Made by a program: the position numbers and the translations under genes
Shown here: positions 2,413 through 17,616 of the stretch, piece by piece
How positions within the stretch are numbered: position 1 is the first letter of the stretch
Layout: each line of letters opens with the position of its first letter
DNA from: Candidatus Odinarchaeia archaeon
GTDB taxonomy: Archaea; Asgardarchaeota; Odinarchaeia; Odinarchaeales; Odinarchaeaceae
Assembly: GCA_029856525.1 (NCBI GenBank)
Contig: JAHQXC010000018.1
Location: 1-20,289, forward strand
Direction of reading: 5' to 3'
DNA: 20,289 bases
Notes under the pieces: model-generated
Databases searched by the model: none
What the model saw: only the letters and a program-made list of their open reading frames with translations
Told to the model about the DNA's origin: nothing

Positions 2413-2652
2413 TTGCTGGTTTTATTTCTAATAATGTTTTATATAATCTGGTTTTCAGGGATTATATTCTTCTCTATTAGCAGCGATATTGTAAGCTGTA
2501 TTTTACTCGGTTCAATATATGCTGTAACAATACCTGTTGCTTTAATTTTAGTTAGGGGGAGTGGTGTTTTAGAAGCTGTTACATGTATACTGGTGGCTAT
2601 TATAGTTATATTATTTATCCTCCAGTCTATTGTCTCCTTCACCTTGAGCTAG
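2413..2652 (+). CDS. Small integral membrane protein (about 3 TM)
   Basis: 79 aa, almost entirely hydrophobic. TTG start 8 nt after GAGG. Confidence 0.55.
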   Translation: MLVLFLIMFYIIWFSGIIFFSISSDIVSCILLGSIYAVTIPVALILVRGSGVLEAVTCILVAIIVILFILQSIVSFTLS

Positions 2653-3618
2653 GAGATTAAACTTGTTTATATGCTGGTAGTGGTCTCTTATACTGTATTC
2701 AGCTACACCTAATATAGAGGCTATCTCTTTCTGAGTGAGTAAAACAGGTCTCTTTTCCTCACAGGCTATAGAGCGTTCAGCTGCGTAAATAATTGAAGCT
2801 GCGAAAACATAGGGATTTCTCCCCCCGCGCTCGACTTTAGGTATTTTATTCAATAATTCTAAAGCCTTTAAATGAATTCTATGCCAGTATGAGTCTGGAG
2901 TCTGATGTGAGAGTTTAGCTTTTATAAAAGGGTTATTCGATAGTGTTGAAATCATTCTTGTCAGATAGTCTTCACTCTTTCTCACCTTCAGCGTGTAACC
3001 TAGATTAATTCTAAGTTTAAGCGCGGTCCTAGTTATTAACCGTTCATTCACTCTATGTCCTAGTTTCTGAAACGCTGCGCATACTTCTGTTAAAGTTAAG
3101 GGAGCTACGTGCTTCTGCTCTCTGATAGATAAAATAATGCATACCGCGATTAGTGAAACGTGGTTTACGATTTTAGCCTGGTATCTGTTTTTTATCTTTT
3201 TATAAAGATATGCAGCGTTATCTCTTACATACGGGGGGAGGTTAAGTATACTAGAGATCTGGTTGAGTATTCTAAGTATACGATACTCTGTTTGACGGCG
3301 AGTGTACCGGGCGTAAATATTCTGCGCGTTTTTTAATCTTCGAAGTTGGGTTCGCCGCTTCTCAGAGATCTTTTTTAATTTTAAATCTGAAAGTTTACGT
3401 GAATTATAATAGTCGATGTAGCTGCCTAACCCGTCCACTATATGGAGTCTTTCACCTAAAGCTCCTCTCGACTTAGAATTATTATTGTCTAATGCTTCTA
3501 AAGGTTCTTGAAATAATTGGTCGACAACTAAACCGCATAACGAGCATACGTATTCCCCGGTTGTTAACACAACATGGCCGCCGCATTCAGGGCATACGCT
3601 TTCAGTCATATCCAACAC
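2611..3618 (-). CDS. tfb: Transcription initiation factor IIB (TFB) paralog, divergent
   Basis: Zn ribbon CPECGG...YVCSLCGLV, two cyclin repeats and C-terminal HTH (TQKEIASILGV). Likely start is ATG at 3609 after GGTG. Confidence 0.9.
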   Translation of the reverse strand: MLDMTESVCPECGGHVVLTTGEYVCSLCGLVVDQLFQEPLEALDNNNSKSRGALGERLHIVDGLGSYIDYYNSRKLSDLKLKKISEKRRTQLRRLKNAQNIYARYTRRQTEYRILRILNQISSILNLPPYVRDNAAYLYKKIKNRYQAKIVNHVSLIAVCIILSIREQKHVAPLTLTEVCAAFQKLGHRVNERLITRTALKLRINLGYTLKVRKSEDYLTRMISTLSNNPFIKAKLSHQTPDSYWHRIHLKALELLNKIPKVERGGRNPYVFAASIIYAAERSIACEEKRPVLLTQKEIASILGVAEYSIRDHYQHINKFNLLAQGEGDNRLEDK

Positions 3619-7288: not shown

Positions 7289-8497
7289 TCAATCTATTTT
7301 ATCTATACCTAAATCAAGAAGTTCTATACTAGAAGCGTTATCAGCGAGCGTCGTAGAATAATCCGCGTGCTTTAACAAATAGTTTTTAGCTACGTCAGGT
7401 CTCTCTCTTCTCGAATTACCTAAAAGCTGCGGGCTTTTAACACCTGTTAATATTAACATAACTCTTAGAATACCGTTCAATTGAGGATCGACTCTAGCAC
7501 CCCAGATAACCATCGCGTTCGGATCCATTCTATCTGTGATAATTTTAGCAACGTAATTCGCTTCTTCTAATGTTAGATCCTCACCGCCGACTACGTGAAT
7601 TAACGCCCCGGTCGCCCCCTCATAGTCTACTTCTAATAGAGGTGTGTTAAGCGCATTCTTAACCGCGAGCTCTGCTCTAGACCTGCCGGCTAATTTTAAT
7701 TTACTAGCGTTTTGAGGTCTCGACGAGTTGATTAAAGAGCTTTCTGTGTTTTTCTCTAAAGAGGAGGCTTCTCCTAAACCTACTAGCGCCACACCGCCGT
7801 TGGTCATAATAGTTCTAACATCCGCATAGTCGAGGTTTATTAAACTAGGCAGTGTTATAGTCTCAGTTATCCCTTTAACCATGTTAGCTAAAACCTCGTC
7901 TGCTACACAGAAAGCTTTATCGATCGGTAGGTTAGGCGCTATTTCAAGTAACCGATTATTATCTATAACCACAACGGTGTCAGCGTATTTTTGAAGCTTC
8001 TCTAAGCCAACTCTAGCCTTTTCAATACGCGCTTTCTCAACATGGAAAGGCATCGTAACCACGCCTACAACTATCGCCCCACAGTCTTTAGCTATCTCCG
8101 CGATTATAGGCGCGCTACCGGTTCCAGTTCCACCACCCATACCTGCAGCGATGAAAACTAAGTCTGCGTCTTGAAGCGCGGCTTTTATCGCATCCCTACT
8201 TTCATCCGCTGCAGCGGCGCCGACCTCAGGGTATCCCCCCGCTCCGAGACCTCTCGTAATCATCTCACCGATCAAGATCTTCCGATGAGCTTTGATAAAA
8301 TCTAAATGCTGACGGTCGGTGTTAATAGCAATACACTCCGCGCCGTGGATTCCGAGAGTTAATAAACGGTTAATTGTATTATTACCGCCCCCGCCTGTTC
8401 CCACCACAACTATACGCGCGTTGCCTGCTTCTTTGACGGGGGTGGTTCTCTCTTCATATTTAGCATGCGCTAGAGCGTCTTCAATAAGAGACCTCAT
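7289..8497 (-). CDS. ftsZ: Cell division protein FtsZ (archaeal FtsZ2-like)
   Basis: GGGGNN, GLGAGG, tubulin signature GMGGGTGTG and T7 loop [21 protein letters not shown] and NTDRQHL are FtsZ2-type sequences. Confidence 0.97.
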
Positions 8498-9379: not shown

Positions 9380-9690
9380 ATTTTAAACACCTCGCATCCT
9401 CTTTTGAAATCCACCATAAAATCAACAAAAAATTATAAAAACACCAATCAACTAATAGCTTTTCAACGAGGAGACTCTGGTTATTATCTTCAACTGATAA
9501 AACAGATACCGGTAAAACATTTTAAAAGGCGAATATAGGTTTTTCTCGAAAATAAAAATCCCGTTACCGCAACCCCCAGAGATCGTTGAAATATTATAAC
9601 CAAGCTATCCAAGCCAGCCGCGGTTTAAAACTGATGGAATTTCATAACACTTGCTGTAGTTTTTTAAGATTTAAAGTCGTGTATTATGAT

Positions 9691-9981
9691 ATGCCTTCAG
9701 TTTTGTATATATATGATGTTAAAAAAGGGCGGCAAAGAGATCCTCGCCGTACTATGTTCAATAAAGAATTATTCGGTTATAAGTATAAGTGGCTGACTAA
9801 AGACGGAGAGAAGAGGAGATTCAAAACAGGTTTACTTCAACGTTATAAAGCGGAGAGGATAGGTGACAGCGCTATAAGCGTTAGTTTAGAGTATTCCAGT
9901 TTTTTTGATGAATTATTTAAAATTTATAGCGATGTTATAACTGTGAGAAAATTCGTTATAGAAAAAGAAGTGTTATTATAA
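9691..9981 (+). CDS. Small Cas2/VapD-like ferredoxin-fold protein
   Basis: From ATG 9691 (96 aa): VLYIYDV...RRTMFNKELFGY...ERIGDSAISV. This follows the beta-strand-YD, helix, xSV pattern of Cas2/VapD. The longer TTG start at 9586 looks unlikely. Confidence 0.5.
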   Translation: MPSVLYIYDVKKGRQRDPRRTMFNKELFGYKYKWLTKDGEKRRFKTGLLQRYKAERIGDSAISVSLEYSSFFDELFKIYSDVITVRKFVIEKEVLL

Positions 9982-10172
9982 GAATAGAACATCTATATTT
10001 CCAGGCAGCCCGCCCTCTCCGAGCTTTAAGGTTTCATACACGACTTTCAGAGATTGCAGGAAAACCAAGTCTCATCAAGTGCTTTTACCGGTTGAACACC
10101 CTCATATTATTCAGTGAATAGACGAGTAGTAGGGAAATTCAAATAAAGTCTACTGCTCGGAAACACGGGGAA

Positions 10173-10194
10173 CCCCTTTATTTCCACTGGAGAA
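10173..10194 (-). promoter_or_regulatory. Origin recognition box ORB-1
   Basis: Reverse complement reads TTCTCCAGTGGAAATAAAGGGG. Confidence 0.92.
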
Positions 10195-10279
10195 TATTAG
10201 AAGGAGAGATCCGCGAGCGTATGAATACTCGTTTAATTTTATAGCGTTACTCGTATTTTTCATTCAATAAAATGTAATG

Positions 10280-10295
10280 GTGGAATAATAAGGGG
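10280..10295 (+). promoter_or_regulatory. Degenerate mini-ORB
   Basis: GTGGAATAATAAGGGG, the ORB right half with small changes. A second partial match, TCCAGGCGAA, lies at 10387-10396. Confidence 0.4.
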
Positions 10296-10586
10296 ATGTG
10301 TTTGTTAACCCGTTTGAAGGAGTGGCTAAAGTTTAGCGGCTGCTGTTATTCATTTGAAGAAGTTTAACAGCTAAAAAATATTATTATCCAGGCGAATTCC
10401 ATAAATGATGAGAATATTATTGTGTGATAGATTAAGTTTCACTCTGTTTATGTTTTTAAATTATCAGTTTATGATTCTAATATTGAACTGTTAATTAATA
10501 TAAGAGATATGTTTTTATACTGAAAAATTAATATACATTCAAACTATTTTTTTAACATTTAAAAATTATCTTACCCTATTTTTTCG

Positions 10587-10608
10587 TTCTCCAGTGGAAA
10601 TAAAGGGG
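10587..10608 (+). promoter_or_regulatory. Origin recognition box ORB-2 with extended G-string
   Basis: TTCTCCAGTGGAAATAAAGGGG followed by TGGGGGT. Confidence 0.92.
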
Positions 10609-10685
10609 TGGGGGTAAATAAGGTTGTTTAAAATAGTTTATTAAACTGAAATAAAAACTATTTAAGATCAGAGGCGTAATTATTA

Positions 10686-11948: not shown

Positions 11949-13187
11949 ATGAGTGAGAATACGTTGGATGCAACATTTGATCGTATTTTAATGAGTAACA
12001 TTTTTAAAAATAGAGATGTCATGAGGCCGACATATATACCTAGTGAGCTCCCTCATAGAGAGCAGCAGATAACCAGAGTCGGGTTGATCCTGGCAGCTGC
12101 ATTAAAAGGCGGGACTCCTTCTAATCTATTTATTTATGGTAAAACTGGAACGGGTAAGACCGCTGTTGTTAAATATGTTATAGAGAAACTTTCTGAAAGG
12201 GCGTCAAAGGTTGAGAGTAAATTAAAGGTTAATCACGCGTATATTAATTGCAGAATTATTGATACAACTTACCGTGTTTTAGCTCGTTTAGCTGAATCTG
12301 TTAACGTGGAAATACCGTTCACAGGATTACCGACGGATGAAGTTTATTTTCGGTTTAAAGATAAACTTGACTGCGAGTCTCAGCTTTTAATCATAGTGCT
12401 AGATGAAGTAGATAAGCTTGTTGAAAAAAGCGGGACAGATGTTCTTTATAATTTAACCAGGATTAATTCTAGTTTAAAACAGGCTAGGGTTAGCATAGTC
12501 GGCATTACAAATGATCTTAAATTCAAGGATTATTTAGATCCCCGTGTTCTCAGCAGTTTAAGCGAGGAGGAGCTGGTTTTCCCGCCTTACACTGCTTTGG
12601 AGCTTCAGGATATCTTAAAGCAGAGGGCTGAAATGGGTTTTAACCCGGGTGTTATTGACGCAGGGGTTATTAATTTATGCGCTGCTTTAGCTGCTAGAGA
12701 GCACGGAGATGCGAGGCGGGCTATTGACCTGCTCAGACTCGCAGGGGAATGCGCGGAGAGAGAGGGGGCTGCACGTGTAACTGAGGATCATGTGAGGCGG
12801 AGCATGTTCCAGTACGAGCAGGATATTGTTTCAGAGCTTTTAAAATCTTTACCGATTCAATCAAAAGTAGTTTTGCTTAGCGTTTACTTATTAGAGAGGA
12901 ATAAGGTGCCGGAGATTATTACAGGTGATATATTTAATATTTATTTGAAATTAGCTGAGTTAATTAAGATTGATAGTTTAACTCAGAGGCGGATAAGCGA
13001 TCTAATAAATGAACTTGACATGCACGGGTTAATAAACGCCGCTATTATTAATAAAGGCCGTTACGGGAGAACTAAGAAAATTAAATTAGCGGTTTCACCT
13101 GAGCTAGTTCGCGCGTGTTTAGAGAAAGATTTCCGGTTGAGGCGAATTTTTACATTAGAATCTAGTTTTTCAAATATCGGAGGGTGA
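11949..13187 (+). CDS. cdc6: Orc1/Cdc6 replication initiator
   Basis: Walker A GKTGTGKT, Walker B IVLDEVD, sensor GITND, GDARRAIDLL and C-terminal wHTH with GRYGRTK wing. Confidence 0.98.
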   Translation: MSENTLDATFDRILMSNIFKNRDVMRPTYIPSELPHREQQITRVGLILAAALKGGTPSNLFIYGKTGTGKTAVVKYVIEKLSERASKVESKLKVNHAYINCRIIDTTYRVLARLAESVNVEIPFTGLPTDEVYFRFKDKLDCESQLLIIVLDEVDKLVEKSGTDVLYNLTRINSSLKQARVSIVGITNDLKFKDYLDPRVLSSLSEEELVFPPYTALELQDILKQRAEMGFNPGVIDAGVINLCAALAAREHGDARRAIDLLRLAGECAEREGAARVTEDHVRRSMFQYEQDIVSELLKSLPIQSKVVLLSVYLLERNKVPEIITGDIFNIYLKLAELIKIDSLTQRRISDLINELDMHGLINAAIINKGRYGRTKKIKLAVSPELVRACLEKDFRLRRIFTLESSFSNIGG

Positions 13188-13196
13188 TAGAAGATA

Positions 13197-14738
13197 TTAT
13201 CCTCCATTATATTCCATGAAGTCGATTACATGAATTTTATTCTCTTTTAAGTCGTAGATGGGTACCTTGCAGGGCGTGGGTGTTATACCCATATTTTTCT
13301 GGTATTGTGTTTGACTCTGCCAGGTACCGGAGTTTACTAGTGCGATGTTACGGTAAAACTCTACACCAGTCATATGTAAATGGCCTGCATGGAAAACATC
13401 AGGCTCCTCTTCTATAACCAGGTAATCCTCCACCTCCGGGGATATCGGTGTTCTATTACCGAACTCGGGGGCTAAATGACGGCTGATTAACAGCTCTCTC
13501 ATTAGACTAGTCGGGTTAGATACGCTTACACCTTGAATAGACGCAGCTAAATCATCTAAGCTTCTACCATGATATATGAGAAAATTATGTGATTGTATTT
13601 GAATTAGCGCAGGATTACCAACCATTATTACATTATCCATCTTATATAATCCTCCAGCGTATTTCTCAGGTATCGCAGGTTGAGGAAGAGCTTGGCGGCT
13701 TGAATCATGATTCCCAGGGCTTATAATAATCTTTATGTAGTCTGGTATCTGTTCAAGATAGGAGCGCGCTTTTTCATACTGCTCTGCCACATCTAAAATA
13801 GCTAGGTCCTCCTCTTGTTTTGGGTAAACTCCTATTCCATCCACTAAATCCCCGGCGATTACAACATACTTCACTCGACCGGCAAGCGCCCTCTGTCTTT
13901 CATTTCCCAATTCCCCTTTAAGCCAGCGTATAAACTTTGTGAAATGTTTCTCTAAGAATTGTTTACTGCCTATATGGAGATCTGATAGTAGCGCTGCAAA
14001 TACCTGTTCCTCTGAGCTTTTAATTTTATGCTGCGTGGAAGTATTCGGCCAATATATTTCTTCTACAAAAAATAGGTTTGAGGAGCTTAAAGCACCCTCG
14101 AAGCAGAGCACCTGATCTAATAGAATGTTGTTAGCTTTTATAAATAATTCTTTATTACTTTTATTAATCACTGCTTTAATTGTACCGCTCGGATCCTCTA
14201 ATTCTAAGAGGATATTCCCTTTACCTGTTGTTTTTTTATCCATCACCATCGCTATTATTTTTATCTTCCCTTCCGCCGCGCTTACTTTACTAACTTCGCT
14301 TATATCTATAACATCGTTCATATCTTTTCTTGAAAGAAAGATTTTTTTAATTTTCATATATCTATTTTGAAAATATTTAACGAACTCTTCTATCTTACCA
14401 GTGGAGTAAGATTTACCGGTGGGGTCGAATAATATTTTTATTTTGCTGTCAAAATCCTTAGCTAAGGGTTGAGTTTTTAAGCTCCCAGTTAATTCCCTGC
14501 TTTTACTACTTGGGAGGGATTCCGTTTTATATTCTTCTTCAGCGTCTATTAGTGAATTGATTATATCCGTGTTTAGAACGGGCGGTAAATCTGTTTTCGC
14601 CGTGATCCTCTCGATGAGTATATTGATTACTTTATCAAGGTTTTCATTCTCTTTTATAGCTTGGAATGCTTCGGGTGTAAGCTGGTAACCTTTTTCTAAC
14701 AGATACTCTAACATTTGATTTAGCGCCTTCAAATTCAT
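13197..14738 (-). CDS. polD1: DNA polymerase D small subunit DP1 (3'-5' exonuclease)
   Basis: OB fold plus calcineurin-like phosphoesterase motifs SDLHIGS, AGDLVDG, PGNHD, YHG and FHAGHLH. Confidence 0.97.
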   Translation of the reverse strand: MNLKALNQMLEYLLEKGYQLTPEAFQAIKENENLDKVINILIERITAKTDLPPVLNTDIINSLIDAEEEYKTESLPSSKSRELTGSLKTQPLAKDFDSKIKILFDPTGKSYSTGKIEEFVKYFQNRYMKIKKIFLSRKDMNDVIDISEVSKVSAAEGKIKIIAMVMDKKTTGKGNILLELEDPSGTIKAVINKSNKELFIKANNILLDQVLCFEGALSSSNLFFVEEIYWPNTSTQHKIKSSEEQVFAALLSDLHIGSKQFLEKHFTKFIRWLKGELGNERQRALAGRVKYVVIAGDLVDGIGVYPKQEEDLAILDVAEQYEKARSYLEQIPDYIKIIISPGNHDSSRQALPQPAIPEKYAGGLYKMDNVIMVGNPALIQIQSHNFLIYHGRSLDDLAASIQGVSVSNPTSLMRELLISRHLAPEFGNRTPISPEVEDYLVIEEEPDVFHAGHLHMTGVEFYRNIALVNSGTWQSQTQYQKNMGITPTPCKVPIYDLKENKIHVIDFMEYNGG

Positions 14739-14880: not shown

Positions 14881-15474
14881 GTGAGCGCCTTGTTTAATAT
14901 TCCCACTAGCGAAGATATAAAAAATTATAGAAAGAAGGCGGGGTTAACTCAGGCAGAGCTGGCCAGGAAATCTAATTTAAGCCAGTCTCTAATAGCGCGC
15001 ATTGAATCAAACACTGTGGATCCTCGACTGTCTACCATTAGAAAAATCATCGACGCTATTGAGGAGACGATGAAACTCAAGAAAACAGTCAGGGATATTC
15101 TGGCTCTAAAAAATAAGGAGAAAAATAAGCTTCCGTCTTTAATTGCATTGGATTTAAACGCTAAAGCCGCAGATGCTGTGGCTCTTATGAAAAAATACGG
15201 GGTGTCCCAGATCCCTGTTCTCGATCAAGGTAAAGCTGTTGGTTGCGTATTAGAATCAGATTTACTTGAAAAAGCTGTTCAGCGTAAAGACCTGTCCGCT
15301 CTCAGTGTTCGAGATGTGATGGCTGCCCCCCTACCTATTGTTAGCGTGAATTCTAAAATAGAAGAAGTTAATAAGTTCTTCGCGCAAGGTTATCCTGCTG
15401 TACTTGTGGCGGAAGCCGGGTCCATTATAGGTATCCTAACAAAAATAGACATAATATCGTATACTACGTTGTAA
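14881..15474 (+). CDS. XRE-family HTH transcriptional regulator with C-terminal CBS pair
   Basis: RKKAGLTQAELARKSNLSQSLIARIESNTVDPRLSTI, followed by CBS repeats (MKKYGVSQIPV; IIGILTKIDI). Confidence 0.92.
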   Translation: MSALFNIPTSEDIKNYRKKAGLTQAELARKSNLSQSLIARIESNTVDPRLSTIRKIIDAIEETMKLKKTVRDILALKNKEKNKLPSLIALDLNAKAADAVALMKKYGVSQIPVLDQGKAVGCVLESDLLEKAVQRKDLSALSVRDVMAAPLPIVSVNSKIEEVNKFFAQGYPAVLVAEAGSIIGILTKIDIISYTTL

Positions 15475-15493: not shown

Positions 15494-15835
15494 TTACCCT
15501 TCTGTTAGTAAACTGGTTATATGCTCTTTAACCTTAGGGTAGCCGAGCTCTAAGGCTTGTCTTAGAATAACCGCGCTCTTCGCGAATGGTTTATACAATG
15601 CGTTGCTTCTAAGTGTTTTAATAAACTCGTCGATATCATTTTTAATAGCTTTTGGAATCCAAAGCGATATTTTTACCATGTCCTCTGTTTCAACAGCGCG
15701 GTTTCTAGGCTGCTCTGCTTCCCCACTCTGCTTCTTCTCTCTAACAATATTCTCCCAGGCGCTTGCGATTATTGAAGCTTTACCACCATCTATCTTCTTG
15801 AATCTTTCAGCGAACGGGTTTCTCGTTTTAGACAT
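15494..15835 (-). CDS. Ribbon-helix-helix protein with flexible N-terminal tail (SegB/ParG/CopG-like)
   Basis: Start ATG 15835, 6 nt after GGAGG. The C-terminal VKISLWIPKAIKNDIDEFI...KSAVILRQALELGY has an alternating beta strand followed by two helices. Confidence 0.6.
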   Translation of the reverse strand: MSKTRNPFAERFKKIDGGKASIIASAWENIVREKKQSGEAEQPRNRAVETEDMVKISLWIPKAIKNDIDEFIKTLRSNALYKPFAKSAVILRQALELGYPKVKEHITSLLTEG

Positions 15836-15881
15836 AATAATCCTCCAATGGATTATTTTATATGACATTGTATTATAACAG

Positions 15882-16802
15882 CTATATTAACCTTTTAACA
15901 GCTTCTTCAACAATATTCGAATCTATTTCGATTCCTTTAGGATTCTCAAGTCTAACATCTATGCTTAGAGCGCATAATTTCCTAATCGTACGCGGATGGC
16001 CCTTCGATAACTGGAATATTTTTTCTACCGCGTCTGGGGTGAAAGGGTATATTGCTGTTCCATCCACGCCTTTAAACTCCTCGTTTTTACTGTAAGCAAT
16101 CCACCTAGCAATATATTCCGCGGTTTCTTTGAAATTAAATCCTTTTAACTCGAATTTAATTAATATTCGATCGATAAACGGCTCCATTAACGGCGAAGAT
16201 AATTTCTTGAAGATCTCAGGTGTCCCTAATAAAATTATTCTGCAAATTTTTATTCCAGCATACTCTAAGTCACTGAACTGTTTTAACGTATCTAAACTAT
16301 TCAAACTAAGTTTCTGCGCTTCATCTAATATGATAATTGTTTGAACTTTTTTCTCAATAAAATTGTCTAGTAGCCTTTTAAGTATCATCGAGGCGACAGC
16401 TTCACGATTATTCCACTTCGATTCGAAATCTATATTAAGCTCAGATCCGATTAACCTTAACACTTGCAGATCGGTGTACTTCCCCGGGTCATCGATTACA
16501 ATGAACATATACTTTTTGCCTATAACCGGGTCGTTTCTAAGTTCAGCCTCCATTTCACGTCTAAAACATGATTTTCCGATCCCCGCATCCCCGTATATTA
16601 ATATTATTTGACTTTTCTGTCCGTTAAGCGCATGGGCGATTTGTATAATACAGTCTTCATTATTGTCAACGTATATTTCCCCTGCAGGTAGCTCTGCATC
16701 TTGGAATATTGTCTTCCGCCATCCTAGTAGCTCATAATATTTTTTCCTGGCCGCATCTAAATTTTTAATTCTACTAGTGAAAGCGTCTCGAGTCCAAGTC
16801 AT
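15882..16802 (-). CDS. ExeA/GspA-like AAA+ ATPase (AAA_22 type)
   Basis: N-terminal YYELLGWRKTIF (ExeA MYxxFFGLxxxPF-like), Walker A YGDAGIGKS, Walker B IILDEAQKL, ILLGTPE and sensor-II region GHPRTIRKLC. Confidence 0.85.
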   Translation of the reverse strand: MTWTRDAFTSRIKNLDAARKKYYELLGWRKTIFQDAELPAGEIYVDNNEDCIIQIAHALNGQKSQIILIYGDAGIGKSCFRREMEAELRNDPVIGKKYMFIVIDDPGKYTDLQVLRLIGSELNIDFESKWNNREAVASMILKRLLDNFIEKKVQTIIILDEAQKLSLNSLDTLKQFSDLEYAGIKICRIILLGTPEIFKKLSSPLMEPFIDRILIKFELKGFNFKETAEYIARWIAYSKNEEFKGVDGTAIYPFTPDAVEKIFQLSKGHPRTIRKLCALSIDVRLENPKGIEIDSNIVEEAVKRLI

Positions 16803-16919
16803 TAATATCCCCTGGTATACTCCAATATATTACTTCATAATATGAATTTTTAATTCTTCTGCAATTTGAATATCTGTCTATCTAATATCCTACTTTGTAT
16901 TATAATATATTCTATTATC

Positions 16920-17459
16920 CTACTTCAGGCTTTTATGATCGCTTAGTTTTTCAATTAGTTCACGTAAATGGTTTTGAAAGCCGGCGAGTATTTCTTTAAC
17001 TTCTTTGAAATCGTTTTTATCTTCTTTAAGTTGGGCATAAGCTTTCTCATAATATTTATAATATTCTCTTAACTCTTCAGCTAATTCTAAATATTGTTGA
17101 AGCCGCGGGTCTTCGAATAAACCTAGATAGCCTAATAGTATGATCGTATAAATTGAACGGATTACATTCTTTCTAGCTTGTTTTAGAACTCTATTAAAAG
17201 CGCCCCTGGAAACCCCTGTGCTCGTCGTGATTATCCTTCTACGTCCCGGTTCTTCTAATTCTGCTTTTATTCTTCTTAGCCTTGCTTTCTTCTCATACCC
17301 TATTTTTTCATTTGAAAAACCATTTGCTAGGAAGTCTAATAGCAGCGTATTAAGCTGTATTTCAGTTAAATTGGTCTCTTTTAGGAGAGTTTTTGTAATA
17401 GGGTCTTCTAATTGCCGATTAATCCAAAAAATAACGTTTTTATCGGTTTCTTCGTTGAT
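16920..17459 (-). CDS. Conserved-looking helical hypothetical protein, probable non-AUG (ATC) start; absent from ORF track
   Basis: Stop-free frame 17516-16920 contains no ATG, GTG or TTG codon. GGAGG lies 7 nt upstream of in-frame ATC at 17459. Translation: INEETDKNVIFWINRQLEDPITKTLLKETNLTEIQLNTLLLDFL...GVSRGAFNRVLKQARKNVIRSIYTIILLGYLGLFEDP...DHKSLK* (179 aa). Confidence 0.8.
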   Translation of the reverse strand: MNEETDKNVIFWINRQLEDPITKTLLKETNLTEIQLNTLLLDFLANGFSNEKIGYEKKARLRRIKAELEEPGRRRIITTSTGVSRGAFNRVLKQARKNVIRSIYTIILLGYLGLFEDPRLQQYLELAEELREYYKYYEKAYAQLKEDKNDFKEVKEILAGFQNHLRELIEKLSDHKSLK

Positions 17460-17616
17460 ATTTTTTCCTCCTGAATTAAGTCTTAATATGGATACAAAAT
17501 TGTATACGTTAACCCTCTATATAAAATCTTGCGTTTAAAGTATATAATATTAAAAATTATAAAACCTATACATATTCTTATATTCTTTCTTTATAAATAT
17601 AGGATGAGGTGACCTT

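Follow-up and report, generated by a model that had tools for sequence, protein, structure and literature searches.

A window of 20,289 nt from a Candidatus Odinarchaeia archaeon (contig JAHQXC010000018.1; "window" always means this whole stretch) contains three minus-strand open reading frames (ORFs) that run in one direction between positions 15494 and 17459. They code for a small tailed protein, an AAA+ ATPase and a helical protein, here called HEL, and together they are a credible candidate for a new chromosome-handling system. Our preferred, still tentative, reading is that they encode an origin-linked machine, which would either act like a partition system or organise the origin. The reading is carried by the conserved pairing of ATPase and small gene, by their conserved linkage to the replication origin, and by a ParA-ParB pair that occupies the same chromosomal slot in one lineage. 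The comparisons described below suggest that the ATPase and the small tailed protein would form a two-component, fast-evolving DNA-handling machine, ancestral to much of Asgard, with HEL as a linked DNA-binding accessory. No description of the module was found in the literature searched.

The three ORFs (15494-15868, 15882-16802 and 16923-17459, all on the minus strand) lie where the preliminary description of this DNA had placed them, and they are real genes, present in single copy in a genome of 1.32 Mb:

15494-15835, minus strand: small adaptor protein of 113 aa, sA type, as delimited by orthologue alignments
15882-16802, minus strand: AAA+ ATPase of 306 aa, AAA_22/ExeA-like, made up of core and lid only, with the N-terminal extension DAFTSRIKNLDAARKKYYELLGW
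16920-17459, minus strand: HEL, 179-aa helical protein; its translation has a helix-turn-helix (HTH)-like core GVSRGAFNRVLKQARKNV and a C-terminal coiled-coil-like tail

The cluster lies about 4.9 kb from a textbook archaeal oriC. A 23-nt inverted repeat without mismatch (10172-10194 and 10587-10609) holds the core TCCAGTGGAAA of the origin recognition box (ORB). The measured distance, the ORB pair and the Pfam matches of the neighbouring genes agree with the earlier placement of the module about 5 kb from oriC, next to cdc6 and DP1:

10172-10609: oriC core, 23-nt ORB elements in inverted orientation around an AT-rich spacer of 392 nt
11949-13187, plus strand: cdc6/orc1 (Pfam Cdc6_lid and Cdc6_C)
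13197-14738, minus strand: small subunit DP1 of DNA polymerase PolD (Pfam DNA_pol_E_B)

Linkage to the origin was followed through Asgard archaea in a census centred on HEL. One or two loci of 15-19 kb around HEL were taken per genus, 43 loci from about 30 genera, and the neighbouring genes were classed by BLASTP. Taxon labels (Jordarchaeales, Ca. Freyarchaeum, Thorarchaeota, Ca. Atabeyarchaeum, Helarchaeota) are those of the source names. In complete or large assemblies HEL is 4-10 kb from cdc6 in the Odin, Atabey, Jord, Frey, f14, f30 and g24 lineages, and cdc6 falls inside the census locus itself in 15 of the 43 cases. The ORB core, searched as TCCA[N]TGGAAA (about 0.04 expected by chance per locus; background 7 in 530 kb of other loci), is present in most HEL loci outside Thor; among the Thor loci about half have it, close to a homologue of a 131-aa gene that flanks oriC in the window. 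Taken across lineages, the cdc6 distances and the ORB cores therefore make origin proximity a conserved property of the cluster and not an accident of this genome, and the check whether relatives also carry the module near their origins came out in its favour in many lineages.

The clearest hint that the module might do the work of a partition system comes from Atabeyarchaeia. In three genomes from two genera (L087:7652-9251, L095 and L096) a ParA-ParB pair stands between cdc6 and HEL. The gene order in Ca. Atabeyarchaeum and the two related genomes is DP1, cdc6, wH157, ..., ParA, ParB, HEL, HTH-CBS; Jord- and Freyarchaeia show DP1, cdc6, wH157, p131, ATPase, small protein, HEL. The Atabeyarchaeia pair is canonical, with a ParA matching AAA_31 at E 4.7e-55 and a ParB composed of ParB_N and HTH_ParB. 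The ATPase family was not found in these three genomes, in which a profile of 16 sequences gave generic P-loop matches of about 20-26 bits. By the counts of ParB_N, ParB appears to be essentially absent from, or sporadic in, the families that bear the ATPase (f1 0/3, f14 0/19, f15 0/5, f16 0/6, f30 0/1, f13 1/12, and 9/89 in the family group that includes Thor), and it is present in 3/3 Atabeyarchaeia.

An ExeA-like or diverged AAA ATPase together with a tailed small protein was found within 0.5-4 kb of HEL at 38 of the 43 loci, most of which have ORB motifs, cdc6 or DP1 as well. The loci were distributed as follows:

34/43 loci: ExeA-like ATPase and tailed small protein, 0.5-4.0 kb from HEL (median 3.4 kb), in Odin, g24, f30, Jord/Frey and Thor
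4/43 loci: diverged 439-aa AAA ATPase and homologous tailed small protein, 1.1 kb from HEL, in f14
3/43 loci: ParA and ParB beside HEL, at 0.9-2.2 kb, in Atabeyarchaeia
2/43 loci: no such neighbour of HEL, in f3 and Helarchaeota-labelled

The ATPase gene, the small gene and HEL occur in at least four orders and orientations, which argues that proximity has been retained and not a frozen operon. In genus g2, HEL is 1.6-2 kb past the small gene on the opposite strand, and an unrelated gene directly precedes the ATPase; in Thorarchaeota HEL and the ATPase/small-gene pair have two unrelated genes between them. HEL is also more widely distributed than the pair as defined by sequence, being single-copy in 120 of 400 Asgard genomes and in 28 of 85 genera (7/7 in the Odin order). 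The term "three-gene module" used in the preliminary description is therefore too tidy: proximity has been kept across Asgard, but HEL extends beyond the pair and is split off from it in Thorarchaeota. Co-occurrence in relatives was confirmed, since the pair is present in 7/7 Odinarchaeia genomes and divergent equivalents stand beside HEL in some 30 genera of Asgard archaea.

Judged by stringent sequence searches, the two proteins of the pair appear to be specific to Odin. With Odin-only profiles both were found in 7/7 Odin-order genomes among the 400 Asgard genomes, and no other genome reached comparable scores. When 5.8 billion proteins were searched from word seeds, only eight close ATPase relatives and one bacterial ExeA came up, and exhaustive HMMER on 1.8 billion representatives gave a few intermediate metagenomic ATPase homologues (P0010-P0017, 100-208 bits) followed by thousands of bacterial ExeA proteins. 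A search for related loci returned only Odin loci and bacterial ExeA from the genome collection and two short contigs from metagenomes. One locus, L048 (JBHLKK010000010.1), labelled 'Candidatus Hodarchaeota', encodes an ATPase 65% identical to that of the window in an Odin g2-type locus, and the label is probably a misclassification.

The f14 loci (L091:9667-12121, L097, L121 and L122) form a variant of their own, with the 439-aa AAA ATPase, a 126-aa tailed protein resembling a ribbon-helix-helix (RHH) protein, and a 199-aa protein assigned to no family, convergent with HEL. HypF is directly beside HEL, often within 1 kb, in the g24, Jord, Frey and f30 loci and in most Thor loci (L072, L088-L090, L100-L128). 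Genus g24 has a TFB-like gene next to the module, and a T2SSE-type ATPase 2.5 kb off.

The classification of the ATPase as an ExeA/TnsC-like AAA+ protein, and not a ParA or SegA, was upheld. It matches Pfam AAA_22 (PF13401) at E 6.6e-17 (62.5 bits, cutoff 27), and no Pfam match to ParA, CbiA or AAA_31 was obtained. The NCBIfam model TIGR03015 (ExeA-like PEP-CTERM ATPase) matches at E 8.5e-23, its 81 bits lying far under the cutoff of 324.5; an orc1/cdc6 subfamily model matches at 1.8e-9, well under its cutoff, and a PHROG of the MuB-type 'DNA transposition protein' matches at 8e-19. The ATPase motifs are intact and conserved: Walker A GDAGIGKS, Walker B ILDEAQ, an invariant DR and the sensor-2 GHPR. 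A family-profile search of PDB sequences with the ATPase found nothing. The predicted structure is of moderate quality (pLDDT, the predicted local distance difference test, 65), with a good core and poor N-terminal 46 residues and residues 207-252. In fold searches with this model the nearest solved structures were archaeal Cdc6/Orc1, MuB and TnsC (2qby_A, 8xvc_A, 7ufi, 7m99), and the best match among reviewed UniProt (Swiss-Prot) models was ExeA P45754 (E 3.9e-14).

Maximum-likelihood phylogeny places the bacterial ExeA proteins in a clade with 100/100 support that leaves out all archaeal forms. The ATPases of Thor, f30, g24 and Jord/Frey make up a second 100/100 clade, and those of Odin a separate clade on an unresolved backbone. 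The ATPase thus does not group with the secretion-type bacterial ExeA clade, an outcome that the preliminary description had listed as speaking against its proposal.

Several more familiar identities were considered for the ATPase and set aside. The protein stops after the lid and has no Pfam match to Cdc6_C or Cdc6_lid; as it lacks a winged-helix domain, it is not an Orc1/Cdc6 initiator, and the real cdc6 is the neighbouring gene. A secretion ExeA would be expected to have a membrane or peptidoglycan-binding half, but the ATPase has no transmembrane or peptidoglycan-binding domain, neither GspB nor a secretin is encoded in the window, and the protein falls outside the bacterial clade. A role as a transposition helper was rejected on the grounds that neither the window nor the orthologous loci contain a transposase and the gene is single-copy. 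The 20,289 nt contain no transposase, integrase or type II secretion gene, in keeping with the preliminary description, which had noted the lack of transposase and type II secretion genes nearby. A defence system was rejected as well: PADLOC gave no match for the ATPase, and the small protein and HEL were matched by none of PADLOC, NCBIfam and PHROGs.

In the small protein of the window a charged linker joins the conserved N-terminal peptide NPFAERFKKIDGGKA to a strand-helix-helix domain, RHH-like in pattern, that ends in GYP at the C-terminus. Its gene most likely starts with the ATG at 15835 (MSKTRNPF), which follows a GGAGG and is in register with all orthologues; the ATG further upstream, at 15868, is probably not the start. 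The small-protein family comprises 13 clusters, and the strand-helix-helix pattern is conserved among the orthologues, for which an RHH fold is probable. For the C-terminal part the RHH families CopG, MetJ and ParB_C came up as language-model neighbours (0.84-0.87, below threshold and a lead only). Profile-profile alignment (hhalign) of the window family (sA) with the f14 partner p126 gave a weak in-register match (P 0.0025); the same comparison of the Odin small-protein family with the RHH partners of g24 and L042 was not significant. The idea of a tailed RHH binder is therefore retained in part: the tail-linker-domain layout fits, but the RHH fold lacks a significant Pfam or PDB match.

The similarity to Sulfolobus SegB proposed in the preliminary description could not be detected. 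The small-protein family profile matched no PDB chain at E values up to 10, and the SegB structures 7DUV and 7DV2 (PMC8682754) were among the chains searched. As the profile missed these structures, any likeness to SegB is at most architectural.

The same organisation recurs in the partners of related ATPases. A small gene follows the ATPase gene directly in every near or distant homologue locus examined, and every partner is built alike, with a short conserved peptide at the N-terminus, then a charged linker of low complexity, then a C-terminal domain. The N-terminal peptides are:

window: NPFAERFKKI
L042: SIFKGRLEEV
L044: NVFERRMKQV
L069: NVFEKRAEEL
family f14: DLIRERMKKE
Thorarchaeota: LLGKYRKEE

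The peptide is kept when the C-terminal domain is of another type, DUF5343 in L069 or DUF4177-like in L044, and for this reason we read it as an element that would contact the ATPase and serve for docking. The N-terminus of the window ATPase itself (16776-16802, DAFTSRIKNLDAARK) resembles the peptide of its partner (15794-15820), both fitting F-x-x-R-phi-K-x-phi-D, and a similar echo between ATPase and partner is found in other lineages. The two peptides could bind the same surface.

The common C-terminal domain of the partners is a strand-helix-helix unit followed by a conserved [FY]P motif, and the evidence that it is an RHH domain is consistent but weak. Two partners match RHH_1 over the entire domain at E 0.002-0.004 and a third matches Arc; the ten best named language-model neighbours of the Thor partner all belong to the RHH clan, ParG included, and hhalign of sB with the f14 partner p126 gave an in-register match at P 1.3e-4. 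In family f23 (L035:1147-2310, L037, L039) the ATPase is fused to a C-terminal winged helix-turn-helix (wHTH) of the MarR type and has no separate partner, which is another link between this ATPase family and DNA binding; the fusion is an Orc1-like architecture reached by another route. At a true ExeA locus, L012, the ExeB/GspB partner is directly downstream, and the integrase-linked ATPase relative L040 is a distant match. The locus L069:115-2872 carries a distant ATPase homologue in an operon of the order Fic, ATPase, DUF5343, in which the DUF5343 protein bears the NVFEKR peptide; here the ATPase-adaptor principle may be put to another use.

The third gene, HEL, has 987 database relatives, all of them hypothetical save for a few with the JGI label 'UPF0251 DNA-binding', and its profile gave only coiled-coil noise against PDB sequences. 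The HEL ORF has no ATG, GTG or TTG start, and an ATC (17457-17459) comes 7-8 nt after a GGAGG. In two other genomes of the genus the codon after the conserved GGAGG is ATC or ATT, and in an 85%-identical relative it is GTG; initiation of HEL thus appears to be at ATC.

Short sequence elements precede both HEL and the ATPase gene:

17460-17530, minus strand: HEL 5' region with a TATA-like TTTATATA, the element GTATACAATTTTGTATCC (17490-17507) and the GGAGG Shine-Dalgarno sequence
16803-16919, minus strand: intergenic region 5' of the ATPase, in which AAGTAGGATAWTAGA stands twice in direct orientation, 30 nt apart; GTATAC box at 16815-16820

The element GTATACAATTTTGTATCC, about 35 nt upstream of HEL, is exact or near-exact in the four Odin-lineage genomes examined. 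The two-copy repeat AAGTAGGATAWTAGA is kept in the closest relative, G301, and the relatives at 85% and 77% carry GAATAC-type boxes instead; the repeats and the GTATAC box are candidate operator sites. The motif GTATAC is modestly enriched in the window (9 found, 4.2 expected), with boxes on the 5' side of both HEL and the ATPase and on the 3' side of the small gene.

From these features a mode of action can be proposed. The small protein would dimerise through its C-terminal RHH-like domain and bind specific sites in the origin region, while its conserved N-terminal peptide, on the flexible charged linker, would dock on the AAA+ ATPase and regulate it. The ATPase would oligomerise on DNA in an ATP-dependent manner, like its structural relatives Orc1/Cdc6, MuB and TnsC. 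The output would be positioning, partition or organisation of the origin region, that is, the job of ParA-ParB, ParF-ParG or SegA-SegB done with an AAA+ motor.

Such a system would share several traits with type Ib partition (ParF-ParG, delta-omega) and SegA-SegB: two genes for an NTPase and a small DNA binder near the origin, and a binder with a flexible N-terminal tail and a C-terminal, probably RHH, domain. It is through this tail that SegB, ParG and omega activate their ATPases (PMC8682754). With partition systems in general the module shares the chromosomal slot, which carries ParA-ParB in Atabeyarchaeia. It differs from type Ib and SegAB systems in that its NTPase is an AAA+ protein (AAA_22/ExeA-like) and not a deviant-Walker-A ParA/SegA, that the small protein has no detectable sequence similarity to SegB or ParG, and that no centromere repeat array was identified in the window.

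With ExeA/GspA the ATPase has in common the core and lid, the GxPR sensor-2, an N-terminal 'G[WFL]...PF' motif and a cognate partner gene immediately downstream (ExeB/GspB in the case of ExeA); unlike ExeA/GspA, it has no transmembrane or peptidoglycan-binding C-terminal half, and its partner resembles a cytoplasmic DNA binder. A third set of relatives consists of MuB, TnsC, TniB/IstB and Orc1/Cdc6, which are the top structural neighbours of the ATPase and to which the PHROG match also points. In MuA-MuB and TnsB-TnsC, ATP-dependent assembly on DNA is controlled by a terminal peptide of the partner. By analogy, it is plausible that the module follows the same logic. It is unlike MuB/TnsC in that no transposase or integrase is nearby and the ATPase is single-copy, vertically conserved and chromosomal.

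We rank a partition-like or origin-organising machine first, a regulator of initiation second, and a transcriptional pair and an origin-unrelated cassette after these. Regulation of replication initiation or licensing seems unlikely to us. An Orc/Cdc6-like AAA+ protein devoid of a winged helix would be brought to oriC by the RHH protein and/or HEL and would modulate Orc1/Cdc6, MCM loading or origin firing. The match of the core to the orc1/cdc6 model, the lead of archaeal Cdc6/Orc1 in the PDB fold search and the conservation of the cluster beside cdc6, DP1 and ORB elements fit such a role, as does the f23 form, whose wHTH fusion mirrors the architecture of Orc1. However, the best Swiss-Prot match is ExeA and not Orc1, the Thorarchaeota census loci are without cdc6, and the slot in Atabeyarchaeia holds ParA-ParB, a partition and not an initiation system. 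The earlier proposal of an AAA+-driven segregation or origin-licensing module accordingly keeps its general outline, which withstood the results on co-occurrence, origin linkage and clade membership, but nothing was found that specifically supports "origin licensing".

Small archaeal RHH proteins are known as cell-cycle transcription factors (10.1101/2025.10.16.681758). The genes might likewise be a transcriptional, maybe cell-cycle, unit, in which an RHH repressor would act on its own and nearby promoters in the manner of aCcr1-3 of Sulfolobales, with the ATPase as a cofactor and proximity to the origin either incidental or a matter of gene-dosage timing. We consider this improbable. It would account for the short boxes 5' of HEL and the ATPase (GTATAC and the two AAGTAGGATAWTAGA copies) and for the HEL upstream element kept in four genomes, but GTAWTAC is not enriched in the window (2 found, 3.1 expected), a conserved AAA+ partner and a conserved N-terminal peptide at the end of a long linker would be superfluous for a plain repressor, and the displacement by ParAB would be left unexplained. 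We give equally low odds to an ExeA-like ATPase/adaptor cassette unrelated to the origin (envelope or pilus assembly, defence, mobile element origin) that has stayed near oriC by inherited gene order. ExeA/GspA is indeed the nearest named family; a T2SSE-type ATPase lies 2.5 kb off in g24 and a MinD-like gene 13 kb off in the window; some distant homologues have Fic and DUF5343 as neighbours; and the conserved neighbourhood extends to unrelated housekeeping genes. Against this, no transmembrane or peptidoglycan-binding domain, GspB, secretin, transposase, integrase or PADLOC match was found, the gene is single-copy in this genome and present throughout the order (7/7 genomes), the ATPase falls outside the bacterial ExeA clade, the partner resembles a DNA binder, and closeness to HEL has been kept through several rearrangements in different classes.

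The preferred partition-like or origin-organising role has weak points of its own. The small protein of the window has no significant Pfam or PDB sequence match, and its AlphaFold2 monomer (pLDDT 57, all-helical) is too poor for use. No centromere-type repeat array is evident in the window, which has only short two-copy repeats and GTATAC boxes. The families of the Lokiarchaeia type are without HEL (0/135 in f22), and the system is therefore not universal in Asgard. The tree, for its part, neither shows nor excludes a common origin of the Asgard ATPase forms. The conserved neighbourhood also holds HypF, POR-like, ACS-like, PAN and other housekeeping genes, so inherited order around a slowly rearranging origin may explain part of the linkage. 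Distant ATPase homologues exist away from origins, with Fic and DUF5343 and beside an Hjc-like nuclease, and the replacement by ParAB is one evolutionary event.

The wider proposal is more doubtful than the origin-linked role as such. It holds that in much of Asgard (Odin-, Thor-, Jord-/Frey- and related lineages) the chromosome origins would be segregated or organised by an ExeA/Orc-like AAA+ motor driven by a tailed RHH adaptor, with HEL as a third component. Such a machine would match ParABS/SegAB in function on another motor fold, and in Atabeyarchaeia ParAB would have taken its place. If it is true, an AAA+-driven class would join the ParA, actin-like and tubulin-like partition motors. 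A 2024 review states that Asgard archaea have ParA and ParB homologues that they 'may use' (PMC7617429); the absence of ParB from most module-bearing lineages, the cross-class origin linkage and the ParAB replacement in one lineage make the question testable. New in this analysis are the displacement of the pair by ParAB and the complementary distribution of the two, the N-terminal peptide that the partners have in common, and the census built around HEL. Being small, single-copy and from a thermophile, the Odin proteins are suited to biochemical and structural work.

The remaining neighbours in the window are as follows. Between DP1 and the small gene there is a regulator that recurs as a neighbour of HEL in the Atabey-, Jord- and Freyarchaeia loci of the census:

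14881-15474, plus strand: HTH_3 and CBS regulator (Pfam)

The other flank of the cluster carries a DUF355/adenosine-kinase-like gene, Alba and POR subunits (Pfam). The 131-aa gene that adjoins oriC (9586-9981) has no Pfam family; its homologues sit beside ORB motifs in the Jord, Frey, f30 and Thor loci, and on this comparison it qualifies as a conserved origin-flanking gene. The same contig as the origin also encodes FtsZ (7289-8497), a MinD/ParA-like P-loop protein of 221 aa (1279-1944) and a TFB-like gene (2611-3618).

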